Source: Eledone cirrhosa
Taxonomy: Eukaryota
DNA: 64,000 nt
Direction of reading: 5' to 3'
NCBI GenBank assembly: GCA_964016885.1
Contig: OZ024757.1
Coordinates: 37,014,001 to 37,078,000 of the forward strand
The notes beneath the pieces are model-generated. The model made no database searches. It was not told the origin of the DNA and worked only from the letters and a program-made list of their open reading frames with translations. Shown here one piece after another: positions 3,766-13,253 of this stretch. Within the stretch, counting starts at the first letter, position 1. Each line of letters opens with the position of its first letter. Both the position numbers and the translations under genes were made by a program.

Positions 3766-4221
3766 AAACCAGGAAGTTAATGGTGATCGGGTTTTGATGT
3801 GTCATCGGGGATAAAAAAAATCAGTTAATAATAAAGATCGTATTGATTTTAACGTTCGATTATAGCTAATAGAATATTTTTTGTTTAAATAAGGTTAATT
3901 AAATGATCAGTTCTGTTTGTGTTGTTTTATATCATTAATATATTAAAAATAATTAGCGAGCACTTTCTCTCCATGACGGTTAGTCTGTATAAGGATATAT
4001 AATGCAACAAATATAAATAAAATATTAAATATTTAAAAGTGGTTGTTTTATTAAAAGAACAACGATAAAATATTGAAAATGTTTTTTATTTTTTAATAGA
4101 ATATATATTTTCTGTTTTATTATGAAACAAACATTTTTTAAAACCGGAAGTTAATTTTTATTCGCTGTGGATGTCAGACAAATTTTCTATCCGGTAGGTC
4201 TCTTCCTGTTGGTAGCCATTT
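3766..4221. promoter_or_regulatory. Putative shared bidirectional promoter: ETS-like sites, TCT/5'TOP start, YY1-like motif
   Basis: AAACC(A)GGAAGTTAAT at 3766-3781 and 4141-4155; pyrimidine tract CTCTTCC at 4200; GCCATTT at 4215-4221. This combination is typical of ribosomal-protein gene promoters. Confidence 0.6.
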
Positions 4222-4292: not shown

Positions 4293-4401
4293 ATGACTGA
4301 GCAAATGACTTTGCGTGGAACCCTTAAGGGTCACGGCGGATGGGTTACACAAATTGCTACTAATCCAATAAATCAAGATAATATTGTCTCTGCTTCAAGA
4401 G
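4293..4401 (+). CDS. RACK1: RACK1 exon 1
   Basis: [36 protein letters not shown]; donor G|GTAAG; 109 nt, phase 1. Confidence 0.97.
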
Positions 4402-4862
4402 GTAAGATGTACACATGTATCAGTTTCTCATATCTATCAATCTGTATACGTTGTTTTCTCTAAATACCATTTGTATATTTGTTGATTCGTGTTAATTCTT
4501 TATTCTTGCCATGATCGTAATATATAAAGATTATATCTATTATAAAACCTCGTATAATATATAAATAAATATATATATATAGCTTTAAAAACGACACCGA
4601 AATTGCGAATCGCTGAAATTTGCCCTACATTTATTACAGAACTTTCTCATAAACTTGATATGTATAAAAAATATATATAATAGTACCGATCTAGCATAAA
4701 TTTAGTTTTATTTAATATATATAAAATGTATGTGTGTATATATATTGCCAGATAAGTTATATTTCTCCATTTCCCTCGCTGTTATATACACGTTGGTATA
4801 TATATATATTAGCAGGGAGACCTTATGCTAGTCTCATCCACTTATATATATATATATGTTCA

Positions 4863-4960
4863 TACAGAGGGTCCCAAAATTGTATACACACTTCATCTTG
4901 CTAATAAATATTGCCTCTACAGGTAATCAGTGTGTATACATTTTGGGGGGCCATCCTATA
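4863..4960. mobile_element. Tc1/mariner-like MITE
   Basis: TA-flanked imperfect TIRs CCCAAAATTGTATACACACT / AGTGTGTATACATTTTGGG. Confidence 0.6.
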
Positions 4961-6104
4961 TATGTGTATATAACATTTGTGTAGACCATTTGAAATGTGA
5001 TAATCGGACGAAATACCTTTCATTTTTCTTCAAAGATCTATTGTCAATAATACCCGAAATATAATAATAATTGTTTCTACTTTTGGCACAAGGCCATCAA
5101 TTACCTCAGTACGTTACTGGTACTTTATTTTATCGACCCCGTAAGGATGAAAGGCAAAGTTAACCCCGGCGGGATTTGATCTCGTCTTACCCTCTGCCAA
5201 TCGACCGCCTATAGTAATAATTGTTTCTACTTTTGGCACAAGGCCAGCAATAAACCAATGCATTACTGGTACTTTATTCTATCGACCCCGGAAGGATGAA
5301 AGGCAAAGTTAACCCGCCTATAGTATTAACTAATGTTTCAATTGGACTGCGGCCATGCTGGGGCAGTGCCCTCTAATAACAAATTTCACGGTTTTCACAA
5401 TTTTTCTACCATTTCCTCGTGGCCTTTTTTTTAGTTTTTATTAATCAAGTAATTTAATTAGTTTCCTAATATGTTGGTCTGATCTTTTATCTTTTGATAT
5501 GACTTGTTTCTGCTCCTCGTGTGTTTGGTGGAGCATGCGGGATTCCTGTGAATACGATGAGATATTTTCGTTTTCTTATTTCGGGATCTAATGTCAACGA
5601 TCGCCATGTTTTACCTGACCATTAGCTTTCAATTTGTCTGGGACTGATTATATATATATATATATAACCCCTCTATTTGATGAACGAACTAGACGTATGT
5701 TAATAGTCTAGGGTCCTGAAACATTTGGTAATGGGGTAGTTATATATTGTTCACTTTAAATAGCTCTGGTTTATACATAGAGCACTCTTTTCCTTTTATT
5801 TTTTCTTCGAAAATACTTAACATATATATATATGTGATGGCGCGTGTCTGAGTGAGAGAATTGGATTCGCAATTGTGAGGTTCTGAGTTCGATACCTGGA
5901 CCGGGTAATGCATTGTATTCCTGGGGATTCAGTTGGAGACGGTTGCTTCTTATAGGACCCACTGGTAGAAGTGTTTGAGGACTCTGTTCCCGCGGCCATT
6001 CTTTTTTTTTTTTCAAAATTAAATTGTTTCAAGTTTGTTCGTAAATCATATCAAAATTCTAAAATATAATGGTTTGGCTTTGTTTTTACGTCTTCTCTTT
6101 GTAG

Positions 6105-6279
6105 ACAAAAGTTTAATTCTGTGGCAGCTGACTAAAGATGAACAACATCAGTATGGTTACGCCAAGAAATCTCTGAAGGGACACAACTATTTTGTCTCCG
6201 ATGTGGTGATGTCATCAGATGGAAACTTTGCTCTATCAAGTTCTTGGGACAAAACTCTACGACTGTGGGATCTTAACCA
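6105..6279 (+). CDS. RACK1: RACK1 exon 2
   Basis: TAG acceptor; DKSLILWQL...[14 protein letters not shown]; donor GTAAGT. Confidence 0.96.
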
Positions 6280-6532
6280 GTAAGTAGTAACCATGCTAGC
6301 AATGGTTTGAAGGACCGCGTTCCGTATTGTAGCATGCCTTCTAAGACTGGATGGATGTTCTTCCTAAGGGCAACCACTTTACAGTGTGCTGTGTACATTT
6401 TTGTTTTATGTGGGTGAATATCCTTCAAGGCCATGGAGTCATCGTTTAATGTCTGGTCATGGGTTGGACGTACTTAACTGGAGATGTGGCTCTTCCAAAC
6501 AGACAGACCATATTGCAGAGTGCAGTGGATGC

Positions 6533-6592
6533 AGTCCAATGATTAAAACTTAATTCAGTATTGGTGTTGATAATCCTGCAATTATGAGGACT
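6533..6592 (+). ncRNA. SNORD96: Box C/D snoRNA, SNORD96-like (5.8S rRNA guide), copy 1, RACK1 intron 2
   Basis: Terminal stem AGTCC/GGACT; C box ATGATTA (6539); guide TCCTGCAATT complementary to conserved 5.8S AAUUGCAGGA, directly before the D-box variant ATGA (6584). Confidence 0.8.
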
Positions 6593-6847
6593 TGCTTTAA
6601 CTGTTTACTTCATGGTTGTGTTAGTTTTCCTAGAAACTTGATGGTTTCTAGGAAACATTTTAATGTCTTCTGTGGCTATGGGTGACATGGTTTCTTAGAC
6701 AGAATGCCTTGGGAATATGGTTTTAGAAATTACAATTTCTAGTGTGAATAGAGAATATATTTACTGTTGATTCCTGCCCTAATTTGTCTACAGTGTGTGC
6801 ATGTGTGAATAGAATTTAGCATTAAAACTTCATTTTCTACTCCTCAG

Positions 6848-6995
6848 GTCTATGACTACACGAAGCTTTGTTGGTCACACTAAAGATGTTTTGAGTGTTT
6901 CCTTTTCAAGTGACAATCGCCAGATTGTATCCGGCTCCCGTGATAGATCTATCAAACTCTGGAATACCCTCGGTGTTTGCAAATACACTATTACT
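6848..6995 (+). CDS. RACK1: RACK1 exon 3 (missed by ORF track)
   Basis: CAG acceptor; [49 protein letters not shown]; donor GTGAG. Confidence 0.96.
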
Positions 6996-7453
6996 GTGAG
7001 TTAACTTGTGTTTCATCATTGTTTTATGTATATTTTCCATGCTAGCATGGGTTAGGCGGGTTGTCACATCCTGAGACTTAGCAGGCATGATCTGATCCAT
7101 TTTGGATAATTTCTATGGCTGGATGCCCTCCCTAATGCTGACCTGATTCATTTTTCTGTGGGCTTATTTATGTATATGTTTTTACAGTTTGACCTTCTAC
7201 AAGATGAGATGTTTTCGTAAATCTTTCAAAAATTCATTATTAACCCCTTTGTTACCAACCCAACCAAAACTGCCTCTGGTTCTATGAAATAAAACCACCC
7301 TTTTTAAACGTTTCTAATTTAAATTAAAATCACTAACTTAGTAATGAAATAATTAATAATTTTGGTAAATCCCTCAAAATTCTTCATTAATTGAAATAGA
7401 TTGTATTTGAAATATGATCACAAAGCAGAGTTAACCAGATAAAATTGCACAGC

Positions 7454-7516
7454 AGTCCTATGATTAAAACTTATTTCAGTATTTTTGGTGTTGATAATCC
7501 TGCAATTATGAGGACT
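7454..7516 (+). ncRNA. SNORD96: Box C/D snoRNA, SNORD96-like, copy 2, RACK1 intron 3
   Basis: Stem AGTCCT/AGGACT; same C box, guide and ATGA D box as copy 1; differences only between the boxes and in the flanks. Confidence 0.78.
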
Positions 7517-8383
7517 TGTTTGTGCTGTTTTCTTCATAGTTATGTTAGCTTTCCTAGAAGTGTGGTGGTTTCTAGGAAACATTTAACCTGTTGACTGCCG
7601 CGTATATTTTACAGAGCTACCTACAGTTGCTGTTTTTTTTTTTTGTCCCCAGTAAAATGACTACTTTGATTGACAAACGTTACATCAATATAATAGTAAC
7701 CACATCTAGCTTTGAAGTAATGATCTGTTGGAAAGAAGTTCAAACATGTTAGTGTGAGTTATCTCGTCTGTTGAACTGAAGAGGTTAGACTCTAATTACA
7801 AAGAGATTTAGTAATATAACTTTCTGATTATTAAGCTACTGTGGGGTGGCAATATCTGTAGGGCATCGGGTGAAATCCTTAGTGGTATTTGGTTGGGGCT
7901 CTATGTTTTGAGTTCAACTTTACTTTTCATCCTTCTGCGGTTGATAAAATAAAGCTCCAGTTACGGACTGGTTCCGGTATAATCAATTCTTCCTTTCCTA
8001 CTCCTTTCTCTCACAAATTTCAGGTTTTGTGTCAAGATTAGAAACTTATAATTAAGCTGGTGTTTGGAACAAAAGGATTTACATAAAATTATGATGGAAT
8101 GGTTTTAGATCAATATAAAGAGTTTTAACCCTTTAGCATTCGCATTAATTTTCAAACGTCATGCTTATCTGGCCGGTTTGAACATTAAAGAGTTAAACTC
8201 ATTTCTAACTTGTACACTTATCTAGTGGACTCCAGGCTAAAGAGAGCACCATGCTGAGGTCTTTTCCTGGTTAACAACTGTATAGTTTAGTACCTTGCTC
8301 TAAACAAATACATATATGTGTTATAATAAATTACAATTGTTGTTTGATTTGAAATTATCATCTTGCAATTTTCAATCCCTGTT

Positions 8384-8456
8384 TCTGACTCAATGATGGA
8401 AAAATATTGTATTAGCTATTGATATAGAATGAGAACAACTCTTTCTGAGAGTCAGA
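8384..8456 (+). ncRNA. Box C/D snoRNA candidate, family B, copy 1
   Basis: 8-bp terminal stem TCTGACTC/GAGTCAGA; C box ATGATGG (8393); D box CTGA (8445); 73 nt. Confidence 0.75.
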
Positions 8457-9023
8457 TTTTGTTATTAATTTAAAGTTTGGGGCCAATTTAGTATACTGTA
8501 TGTATCATTTAATTCTTTAGATACCAAACTACACCTGGTTCAAGAATTACAAAAGCTGTAGCGTTTGTATTTATTGAAAGGTCTTCCGCTCAGAACTTAC
8601 AGACTACTCCCAGCCATTTTAACCAGTTAAGGACTGTATAATCAACTATCTCCCTCGTAAATTTTGGGGCTTTTGTCAATGTTAGAAACAAATTATTAGA
8701 CTGGTGTTTTGGAACAAAATGTTTTACATAAAATTATATCAGTATAAACAGTTTAAAAGAAAAAGATCTGTATTGTAGAACCAGGGGTGGTTTTAGGCAG
8801 TTTGGTAACACAAAGGTTAATTAAACTCATTTCTAACTTGTACCTAGATAAAATCTTTACACTTAGTTTTCCTAGTGGCCACCAGGTTATAGAGAGCACC
8901 ATGCTGAGGTCATCTCAGGGTTAATAAATATTTATGTATGTTATAATAAATTACAATTGTTGTTTGATTTAAAATTATCATCTTGCAATTTTCAATTTAT
9001 AACAGGGATCGTATATCCCTGTT

Positions 9024-9096
9024 TCTGACTCAATGATGGAAAAATATTGTATTAGCTATTGATATAGAATGAGAACAACTCTTTCTGAGAGTCAGA
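9024..9096 (+). ncRNA. Box C/D snoRNA candidate, family B, copy 2
   Basis: Identical to 8384-8456; preceded by hairpin AACAGGGAT/ATCCCTGTT. Confidence 0.75.
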
Positions 9097-9573
9097 TTTT
9101 GTTATTAATTTATAGTTTGGGGACTTTTGGGCCAATTTAGTATACTGTATGTATCATTTAACCCTTTAGATACCAAACTACACCTGGTTCAAGAATGACA
9201 AAAGCTGATAACTTTAACCCTTTAGCATTTAAACTGGCTGTATCCAGCCAGAATTCTCTCACTTCTTTCTGTTGAAACTGGCCGTAACCGGCCATTCATA
9301 CTGATCAAAATCTCATAGGCTCAATATTATGTGAGCTAAAGCCCTTTACCATGAAAATACAATAGTAAATATAGAGTAATGTAAATGCTAAAGTGCTAAG
9401 CTAGCCAACACTCGAAATTTATAGTTTATTCAACACTTGAATGTTAGATACAATGCTTTGTGGTATTTGTTCTGGCTGGGACATACATTAAATATATATA
9501 TATATGTTATAATAAATTACAATTGTTGTTTGTTGCAATTTTCAATTTATAACAGGGATCATATAACCCTGTT

Positions 9574-9646
9574 TCTGACTCAATGATGGAAAAATATTGT
9601 ATTAGCTATTGATATAGAATGAGAACAACTCTTTCTGAGAGTCAGA
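9574..9646 (+). ncRNA. Box C/D snoRNA candidate, family B, copy 3
   Basis: Identical to 8384-8456. Confidence 0.75.
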
Positions 9647-10099
9647 TTTTGTTATTAATTTATAGTTTGGGGACTTTTGGGCCAATTTAGTATACTGTAT
9701 GTATCATTTAACCCTTTAGATACCAAACTACACCTGGTTCAACATTTATTGTAAACCAGGGTAAGCAGGAGAGAAGAAAAGACAAACATATATATATATA
9801 TATATTTTTCTTCTGGAGTCATCTCTCCATTAACCCTTTAGCATTTAAACTGACCTTATCCAGCCAAAATTATCTCACCTTTTTCTCTTTGAACCGGTTG
9901 TAACTGGCCACTCGTACTCATGTTAAGGTATTGTTCTCAAAATAAATAACAAGATCTCATAGATTCGATATTACGTAAAAATATAATAGTATATATAGAG
10001 TAATGTAAATGGTAAAGAGTTAAACAGTAAGTTATGTGTTTGCTGTAGTCCAGTAATTAAAGCTTTGTCTTATGTCACTATTTGTTTTCTGCTTGTCAG

Positions 10100-10195
10100 G
10101 AAGAAGGCCATGCAGATTGGGCATCATGTGTCCGATTCTCTCCAAGTACCACTCACCCTATCATAGTGTCCTGTGGCTGGGATAAAATTGTAAAG
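10100..10195 (+). CDS. RACK1: RACK1 exon 4
   Basis: [32 protein letters not shown]; AG/GT flanks. Confidence 0.96.
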
Positions 10196-10976
10196 GTAAG
10201 TACCTATATGTTTCTTCTTTTTTGCCTTGATAGGTTTGTGGGGTCACAGTCCTTTCAGGCGGGCACTGGGTTCCCAAACGATGGAAATGTGGAAGAGGAA
10301 GATCTAGAAAAGCACAGCTGAAAATAACGGGGAGGAAGTAGAAGTCATGGTGTTGGTGGGTAATATGGCAAAATAGAGAAGGTTTTTTGTCATGGGTCCC
10401 ATGCATGACTAGATCCCTACTAGAACAGGGGAAGTGACCATAAAATGCTCTCATGCCACGTTTCTTGTTTGTTCCTGTGTCCGAATATGGTTCCATAATT
10501 TATTTTAATACGAGTGCCATCTTTCTATTGTATTTTTTTTTTTACTATATGTGAAGTAAGTCTCATGTTGTGTCCTGTGCCCACGACATACCAGTGGTAT
10601 CCAAGGTCATCCATACAATCTTATGGAACCACTGACATATACTACCACGGCCCTGCAGCTTGTGAGAGTGTTAGGGTATTAAAACGATTCTTGTTAGTGA
10701 TACAGAACTTCGATAATAAAGGTGGCCATGACCAGCTATTTGCAGTATTTTGTTAATATTCATATAATAAAGCCCTTCTAGGGGGCAGTATCGGTGGCGC
10801 TTCAGGCATGCTTTGTGGGTTCAAATCCTGCCACAGCTTTGCCTTTCATCCTTAGGGGGCTGGTGAAGTATGGAATACCAGTAATACACTGAGGTCGATT
10901 TAATTGACTCACTCCCCTCTCCCAAAATTGTTGGCCTCGTGGCTTAATCATTGATATATAATGTCTTTCTTTCTAG

Positions 10977-11087
10977 GTGTGGAATCTTACCAACTGTAAG
11001 CTGAAGACTAACCACCATGGACATGCTGGATTTTTAAATACTGTCACAGTTTCTCCTGATGGTTCTCTCTGTGCCTCAGGTGGCAAG
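10977..11087 (+). CDS. RACK1: RACK1 exon 5
   Basis: [37 protein letters not shown]; AG/GT flanks. Confidence 0.96.
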
Positions 11088-11910
11088 GTAACGTATTTTA
11101 ACCCTTTCGCATTTAAACTGGCCGTAGCCGACCAGAATTCTCTCACTTCTTTCTGTTCAAACCGGTTGTAACTGGCTCGTCATACTATGTGGTTGAGAAG
11201 TGAACTCGTTAACACACAACAATGCCTGTACGTTTGTTCATGTTAGGTTTCCCCTATGGCTTGCATGTCTTAATGTAATGCAGTCATAGTAGTTTTGTAC
11301 TTAAGAATCTCAATGCTGTGGGATGGGGGTGGGTTATTAACTCATGTTTTTGGTGCTTTAGTGAAAAGACGATTGAAACAAATTTGCAGTTTTACTATTT
11401 TTACCTTATCGAGCCGTCTGGCTGATGCCATGCTGGGGCACTGCCAAATATTTTAATGTGATGTAATCTTATTGTTTTGTACATTTCAAGAAGGCCTCGC
11501 TAATGTGGGGTTTGTGGATTCAACTGTTTATAGTACCTTTACTACATTAATTTTGATTTGGTGTATTCATCGAGGTCAAATTTGCCTTTTATCCATTTGA
11601 GTTTGATATAGTACCAGTGGAGTACTGGGGTCGATTCTTCCTCACTTCCATTCTCTTTTGTCTTTCGTCTATTTGAGGTCGATAAAATACCAGTCAAATA
11701 CTGGATTCTTCCTCTATATCTCTTTCTCACTTCCATTCTCTCACACACGCACACTCTTATCCTTCTCTGGAAGAAATCTGTCGTGTTCAGACCTGGAAAT
11801 GAGATGGGCTCCTTCGATTTTAAGATTATCACCCTAGAAACTCCCTGTGTCAATATGGCAACCAATATTTCAGTGTTTGTAATTGATTTTATTTTATTTT
11901 TCTGTTTTAG

Positions 11911-12105
<195 letters not shown>

Positions 12106-12459
12106 TAAGATGCTACTTTTTATCCCTAAAATAAGTCTAAAAAATCTACCATGCAAACTGAAGGCCGATGGTTGTTTATTACTTTTTTGTACGTCAAAAT
12201 TAGGGTGCGTCCACCAGGGCAAAGCATCTTCGGCACTGGGAAATACGGTACTTTAAGAAAAAGTTAAGAGAATTACAATTTATTTACATATGCGACTTTG
12301 GCAGAGTTGTTTGAATGTTAGATACAATGCTTTGTGGTATTTGTTCCGGCTGAGACATACATTAAATATATGTATGTTATAATAAATTACAATTGTTGTT
12401 TGATTTAAAATTATCATCTTGCAATTTTCAATTTATAACAGGGATCGTATATCCCTGTT

Positions 12460-12532
12460 TCTGACTCAATGATGGAAAAATATTGTATTAGCTATTGATA
12501 TAGAATGAGAACAACTCTTTCTGAGAGTCAGA
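12460..12532 (+). ncRNA. Box C/D snoRNA candidate, family B, copy 4, RACK1 intron 6
   Basis: Identical to 8384-8456. Confidence 0.75.
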
Positions 12533-13037
12533 TTTTGTTATTAATTTATAGTTTGGGGACTTTTGGGGCCAATTTAGTATACTGTATGTATCATTTAACC
12601 TTTTAGATACCAAACTACACCTGGTTCAAGAATTACAAAAGCTGATAACTTTAACCCTTTAGCATTTAAACTGGCTGTATCCAGCCAGAATTCTCTCACT
12701 TCTTTCTGTTGAAACTGGCCGTAACTGGCCATTCATACTGATGTTGAAGTATTGTTCTTAAAATAATATCAAAATTTCATAGGCTCAATATTATGTGAGG
12801 TATAGCCCTTTACCATGAAAATACAATAGTAAATATAGAGTAATGTAAATGCTAAAGTGCTAAGCTAGCCAACATCGAAATTTATAGTTTATTCAACACT
12901 CCTTTGTTTTCTGGCGTTTTAATGATTATTTATTTTTTTTTTTTTTATCTTTAAACTTTATCTCCTGACGAAGAGCTGAAGTTTGATGTAAGTGTGGACC
13001 TAATAATATTAATTTTGTATCTTTGTGTCTTTTTCAG

Positions 13038-13211
13038 GATCTTGAAGGCAAGAATGTTGTTGATGAGCTTCGCCCAGAAGTTATTACCCAGAGTACAAAA
13101 TCACAACCAGTGTGTATGTCATTGGCCTGGTCTGCTGATGGTCAAACATTGTTTGCTGGTTACACAGATAATAATATCCGTGTCTGGCAAGTATCTACTG
13201 CCGCTCGGTGA
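13038..13211 (+). CDS. RACK1: RACK1 exon 7 (terminal)
   Basis: [15 protein letters not shown]...[25 protein letters not shown]; the seven exons sum to 954 nt = 317 aa plus stop. Confidence 0.96.
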
Positions 13212-13253
13212 ATGATTTAAACTTAAGCTAAAATGGCTGTTCAGATAGATATC

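Follow-up and report, generated by a model that had tools for sequence, protein, structure and literature searches.

An octopod RACK1 gene carries two SNORD96-type copies

We analysed a 64,000-nucleotide stretch of Eledone cirrhosa DNA (hereafter the window), whose forward strand, on which all window features below lie, carries a RACK1 gene at 4293–13212. The gene model comprises seven coding exons (4293–4401, 6105–6279, 6848–6995, 10100–10195, 10977–11087, 11911–12051 and 13038 to the stop codon) that encode 317 amino acids; its introns are GT-AG, its frame is free of stops, and the gene is intact. Named Octopus RACK1 proteins share 98.1% identity with the encoded protein, which our tree places, with good support, among octopods. 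Some 90 nt before the start codon, at 4200–4208, a pyrimidine run, CTCTTCCTG, is reminiscent of a 5′ TOP start. Such starts are typical of snoRNA host genes. Primers for mouse RACK1 exons 2, 3 and 4 (available part of PMC3941584) encode, by eye, peptides of window exons 2, 3 and 4. The last coding exon is uninterrupted both in the window (13038–13212) and in a second invertebrate lineage described below (L175), giving seven coding exons. Human RACK1, as far as the sources covered describe it, differs from the window gene and its two snoRNA copies in having eight exons and U95 in intron 1.

Intron 2 (6280–6847, after codon 94, phase 2) houses the first of two SNORD96-type box C/D snoRNA copies, at 6533–6592, and intron 3 houses the second, at 7454–7516, both on the sense strand of RACK1. 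In copy 1, a 5-bp terminal stem (6533–6537 with 6588–6592) encloses a C box ATGATTA (6539–6545) with U rather than G at position 6, the guide TCCTGCAATT (6574–6583), which is a 10-nt antisense match to 5.8S rRNA with D+5 at the C at 6579, and a D box ATGA (6584–6587) whose first A pairs with U6 of the C box. The corresponding elements of copy 2 are a C box at 7460–7466, a guide at 7498–7507 and a D box at 7508–7511. An earlier reading made from the letters alone (the sequence-only reading) had placed the guide directly 5′ of the D box and described both copies as having boxes ATGATTA and ATGA about 50 nt apart, and this is what we find, with C-to-D spans of 49 nt in copy 1 and 52 nt in copy 2. 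It had also proposed that a SNORD96-type guide lies in RACK1 as in vertebrates. Human SNORD96A (U96A), which guides 5.8S Gm75, lies in RACK1 intron 2 (available part of PMC3941584), and the window copies in introns 2 and 3 show this vertebrate arrangement.

The internal C′/D′ boxes of the window copies are degenerate candidates only, and the second lineage has clearer ones; in copy 1 the putative D′ box is CAGT (6556–6559) and the putative C′ box GTGTTGA (6564–6570). A CAGU D′ box and a UUGUUGA C′ box are listed for zebrafish SNORD56 in the portion of PMC7668251 covered. An unbiased C/D scan of the RACK1 gene, in which C6:D1 had to be paired and the stem to span at least 4 bp, returned the two copies, four copies of a second element (see below) and nothing else, leaving intron 1 with no other C/D candidate. 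Contigs from three public runs, which represent one sample, possibly the window's own source, and are therefore not independent, match positions 5900–7060 with zero differences; these contigs are unspliced. Because they agree letter for letter, a consensus error is an improbable source of the variant boxes in copy 1.

The guide is predicted to target 5.8S rRNA

All 10 nt of the guide pair without mismatch to zebrafish 5.8S rRNA, placing D+5 on G75 (source available in part). The guide pairs equally well with seven Rfam-confirmed eukaryotic 5.8S loci out of eight fetched, with D+5 on G74 in one of them (L243); all were fetched by the target motif and so show the position of the site, not its conservation. 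The D+5 rule does point, as the sequence-only reading proposed, to a G of 5.8S, namely G74/75 in the 5.8S of other eukaryotes. Methylation of the equivalent site is recorded for fly, human, Arabidopsis and Xenopus (PMC11014333 Table S4). From the pairing, we predict that the window copies guide 2′-O-methylation of the 5.8S G equivalent to human G75. Seven contigs in bacterial genome bins (L243, L244 and L246–L250) are eukaryotic rDNA, that is, contamination.

At Rfam gathering thresholds, the whole window yielded no matches. When all families were searched in E-value mode, SNORD96 (RF00055) was the sole family match at either copy, with 24.8 bits (E = 0.57) at copy 1 and 26.1 bits (E = 0.26) at copy 2, both missing the gathering score of 43 bits. 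The model search proposed earlier therefore matched SNORD96 at both copies but fell below threshold, while SNORD96-type identity holds up on the sole family match, the guide pairing to 5.8S and the RACK1 intron. All 14 RF00055 rows from the second lineage likewise score 24–33 bits, so the threshold misses these invertebrate members generally, and genome annotation probably omits them. The RF00055 consensus differs from the window copies in having canonical boxes, 85 positions and a second, D′-linked element absent from the window. We assign the copies as SNORD96-type on the basis of guide, target and host, and claim no formal Rfam membership.

The 10-mer by itself is weak evidence: with one mismatch allowed it matches the window eight times against 5.3 expected, and when the 7965 intron bases were shuffled 3000 times, the exact 10-mer turned up in 44 of the shuffles. 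None of the 3000 contained the guide followed by NTGA, or the full motif of C box, guide and NTGA, each of which occurs twice in the actual sequence. A model built only from 14 second-lineage sequences ranked the window copies first in the 64 kb (27.6 bits for copy 1 and 27.3 for copy 2, versus 16.9 bits for the next match); in these homology tests the 10-nt guide is common by construction, the host location is not. Viral contigs matched the snoRNA pattern at 35 loci and a 5.8S motif at 83, and these matches were taken as chance background.

A second invertebrate lineage has the same snoRNA in RACK1

We scanned metagenome contigs for the pattern of C box, guide and D box and obtained at least 124 loci from 18 of the 64 parts of the collection. 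Snorna-like matches of a single family are present at 15 of the 124, scoring 64–81 bits with a model trained on these loci versus at most 32 elsewhere, among the 96 loci that the scoring covered. RACK1 exons occur in 11 of these 15 loci, the other four having 300-base flanks only, and in none of the remaining 109; two locus pairs share a contig, and L142 equals L219 in sequence. A separate pattern group (L126, L140, L197 and L222, with a 12-nt match) was rejected, as it lies antisense in a long ORF, without RACK1 and without a SNORD96 match.

All 15 loci belong to one lineage. In five distinct genes of this lineage, with exon-2 DNA identities of 82–88%, a copy lies downstream of RACK1 exon 2, in an intron that matches window intron 2 in position and phase (after codon 94, phase 2); in two of the five (L131 and L142) the contig stops before exon 3. 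RACK1 introns 3, 4 and 5 hold further copies, of which two have a single mismatch in the guide. Two copies, L168:1544-1632 (-) in intron 5 and L187:1489-1561 (-) in intron 3, have G replaced by C at guide position D+6, adjoining the target, and these paralogous copies may be either decaying or retargeted. The 16 aligned second-lineage copies all have canonical boxes, with C-to-D spans of 50–59 nt and one of 68 nt. The nearest named RACK1 is that of Platynereis, at 87%, and the lineage groups with Capitella (SH-aLRT 87), outside vertebrates and cephalopods, in RACK1 trees that include clearly wrong groupings and thus place it weakly; at most, it is likely to be annelid.

The variant boxes form one compensatory base pair

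Neither window box fits the literal consensus RUGAUGA/CUGA, each departing from it by one change. In stem II of the kink-turn, position 6 of the C box pairs with position 1 of the D box. Because of this pairing, G to U in the C box together with C to A in the D box converts a G-C pair into U-A, and we read the two 'non-canonical' boxes as one compensatory change from G-C to U-A. The combination ATGATTA/ATGA would keep the kink-turn geometry, as both G·A pairs and the U·U are retained, with U-A at C6:D1. Across 18 sequences, C6:D1 is G-C in 16 and U-A in two; 95.2% of stem cells are paired, and four of seven pairs, including C6:D1, are altered on both sides, as are three of the five pairs of the terminal stem flanking the boxes, though the sequences are related and shuffles therefore overstate the significance of this covariation.

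This box variant is already known. Zebrafish SNORD96 resembles the window copies in its rack1 intron, its guide core, its AUGA D box, its U at C6 (C box GUGAUUU) and its target, 5.8S G75 (PMC7668251, available parts of Supplemental Data 4 row 101 and Data 1 row 105). It differs in being longer, in keeping a CUGA D′ box, in forming an 11-bp duplex and in a C box that ends in U; its expression and methylation have also been measured, whereas the window copies are known from sequence. Since the zebrafish snoRNA functions with the same two changes, with Gm75 scores of 0.89–0.94 over five stages in the part of the supplement covered, literal consensus boxes are not required. Among the 91 rows with boxes counted in the zebrafish table (same source, in part), the D box is AUGA in two, both with U at C6, and C6 is G in 88 of the 89 rows without an AUGA D box. 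An AUGAUU/AUGA pair in nucleomorph snoRNAs of Guillardia theta is itself called compensatory, and in archaeal mutagenesis cited in the same work restoring the pair restored L7 binding (available part of PMC6461891). Both the nucleomorph GtNM-R12-14 and zebrafish SNORD143 share this compensatory pair with the window, but their guides and hosts are unrelated. The surprise that the sequence-only reading saw in the boxes and in the compactness of the copies is accordingly not supported: the changes restore one base pair, documented in zebrafish SNORD96 and nucleomorph snoRNAs, and the canonical relatives are equally short (50–59 nt in 15 of 16).

Nop5/Nop58 specifically contacts the bases lost in the swap to U-A (available part of PMC5389607), and one study reports a requirement for a consensus kink-turn at either the terminal or the internal position, with the swap not among the mutants in the portion of PMC6770171 covered. 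The lost Nop58 contacts and the degenerate C′/D′ boxes count against full activity of the window copies. Because the family toggles between G-C and U-A, it offers a natural pair for testing the weight of the Nop58–stem II contacts. Tentatively, RACK1 intron 2 may have housed SNORD96 ever since molluscs, annelids and vertebrates last shared an ancestor, while the kink-turn pair of this guide toggled between G-C and U-A separately in the teleost and cephalopod lines. If true, independent toggling would point to family-specific tolerance or tuning of snoRNP assembly, the U-A form being rare overall (two of the 91 zebrafish rows).

Duplication and predicted activity of the two copies

The two copies are identical at 56 of 58 aligned bases, apart from a 3-base indel, and lie within a block of about 130 bases that is present twice; copy 2 would have arisen by a local duplication of that length. 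They differ at two of 58 positions within the snoRNA, against 13 differences among 71 positions of the co-duplicated 3′ flank (Fisher p = 0.011), and since the snoRNA diverged less than the flank, the comparison suggests that both copies have been kept by selection. Co-duplicated with the snoRNA, about 35 nt downstream of each copy, is a strong 13-bp hairpin (6626–6655, second copy 7550–7579) with identical outer 10-bp arms and a diverged middle, which could be a processing aid or a remnant.

Judging from known snoRNP biology, RACK1 co-transcription would supply the snoRNA, and the copies would be released from spliced introns. With both G·A pairs and a Watson-Crick C6:D1 remaining, Snu13/15.5K should still fold the kink-turn, after which Nop58, Nop56 and fibrillarin would load, exonucleases would trim the debranched intron down to the terminal stem, and fibrillarin would methylate the G opposite D+5. 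In the gene model, copy 1 lies 256 nt and copy 2 lies 2585 nt from the 3′ splice site. An extended flanking stem could support snoRNP assembly far from the branch point. Such a stem is present beside the window copies.

Three other readings bear on activity. A chance match in AT-rich intron DNA might be suspected from the E-values of the all-family scan (0.26 and 0.57) and from a looser pattern that also picks up 35 viral loci and, in the metagenomes, about 109 unrelated ones, but the absence of the full motif from all 3000 shuffles, the covarying stem and above all the presence of the same element in RACK1 of another lineage leave it scarcely credible; the cross-lineage co-location effectively refutes it. 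More serious, though still quite unlikely in our estimation, is the reading in which at least one copy is a weakened or silent relic, with Gm75 guided from another locus or lost. The sub-threshold Rfam scores, degenerate C′/D′ boxes and loss of Nop58-contacted bases would fit relics, whereas the box changes are compensatory rather than random, neither copy has lost any of its guide, the snoRNA has diverged less than its flank, and the same boxes accompany near-full methylation in zebrafish. A functional alteration by the U-A variant, such that fibrillarin also methylates the neighbour at D+6, has a precedent in the AUGA D′ box of yeast U18, where a base other than C at the start of the D′ box lets two neighbouring sites be modified (available part of PMC5389607), and the window has the same U-AUGA context. 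We nevertheless hold it to be very improbable: the U18 case is a C′/D′ motif with an inserted base, and zebrafish, with the same terminal swap, lists only U8, U14 and G75 for 5.8S in the source portion covered.

Age of the RACK1 link

The sequence-only reading further suggested that the link between host and snoRNA dates to the bilaterian ancestor. The five second-lineage RACK1 genes uphold this part-way; the Drosophila guide for Gm74, whose location in Sf3b3 counts against RACK1 inheritance (PMC11014333 Table S6), and the weak placement of the second phylum hold it back. That guide, snoRNA:Me5.8S-G74 (CD34, 69 nt), resembles the window copies in guiding the equivalent Gm74 and differs from them in its host, its CUGA D box and its CUGAUGA C box. 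On balance, the copies are likely to be SNORD96-family intronic box C/D snoRNAs, predicted to be released and to guide the Gm75 equivalent of 5.8S, that probably inherited their place in RACK1 from the bilaterian ancestor.

Alternatively, a functional snoRNA could have reached RACK1 independently in spiralians and vertebrates, with ribosomal-protein introns capturing snoRNAs repeatedly. Among 22 ancient introns in a published set, one row bears an Ensembl identifier that we take to be that of RACK1. Those introns carry non-homologous snoRNAs in different supergroups, in keeping with snoRNA positions that are not conserved across eukaryotic supergroups (available part of PMC3511168). Even among vertebrates, snoRNAs keep their hosts less stably than their sequences (PMC13736004, portion covered), Drosophila uses a different host, and copies move among RACK1 introns 2–5. 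Against such capture, guide, host and intron number agree in human, in the octopod and in five genes of the second invertebrate lineage, and deep retention has a precedent in SNORD100, kept in RPS12 from sponges to vertebrates (available part of PMC3412847). Inheritance followed by relocation in the fly lineage is simpler, because the alternative needs two independent arrivals with the same guide, gene and intron number, and we regard independent capture as unlikely.

Inheritance within RACK1 would supply a protostome data point on how long intronic snoRNAs keep one host gene, with few stable host cases beyond vertebrates in the literature covered (SNORD100–RPS12). SNORD100 parallels the window copies as a C/D snoRNA retained in one ribosomal-protein host across animals and missing from that host where introns have been heavily lost, and differs in belonging to another family and in its older link (sponges) (PMC3412847, in the part available). 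Because the SNORD100–RPS12 link is older, long retention in one host has been seen before, and no new mechanism is revealed. Our literature search, with most subscription journals and snoRNA orthology databases outside its scope, found no report of SNORD96 in mollusc or annelid RACK1: the main text of PMC6984369 mentions neither SNORD96 nor RACK1, PMC13736004 mentions neither of these nor invertebrates, PMC2653536 has U95 in GNB2L1 only, and PMC2656528 holds nothing useful on SNORD96 in RACK1. The cross-phylum host link is fairly well supported, new to the literature searched and of a known kind.

A second C/D-like element in RACK1

The other element returned by the C/D scan spans 71 nt at 8385–8455, with a C box ATGATGG, a D box CTGA and a 7-bp stem, and has identical copies at 9025–9095 and 9575–9645 in intron 3 and at 12461–12531 in intron 6. 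The four copies sit in duplicated blocks whose flanks differ. In the public-run contigs of one sample, its depth is about four times that of a single copy, so with four copies it is probably confined to the RACK1 gene. Several identities were rejected: snoR31, U54 and SNORD73, for which all Rfam matches were sub-threshold; zebrafish SNORD95 and SNORD143, whose guides do not match by eye; and targets in partial rRNA loci, where the matches were wrongly placed relative to the D box. By eye, the element has a 10-bp match to zebrafish 18S 166–175 that would put D′+5 on U169, a position absent from a six-species site table. If real, this match predicts that the residue corresponding to human U169 is a Um not yet catalogued.
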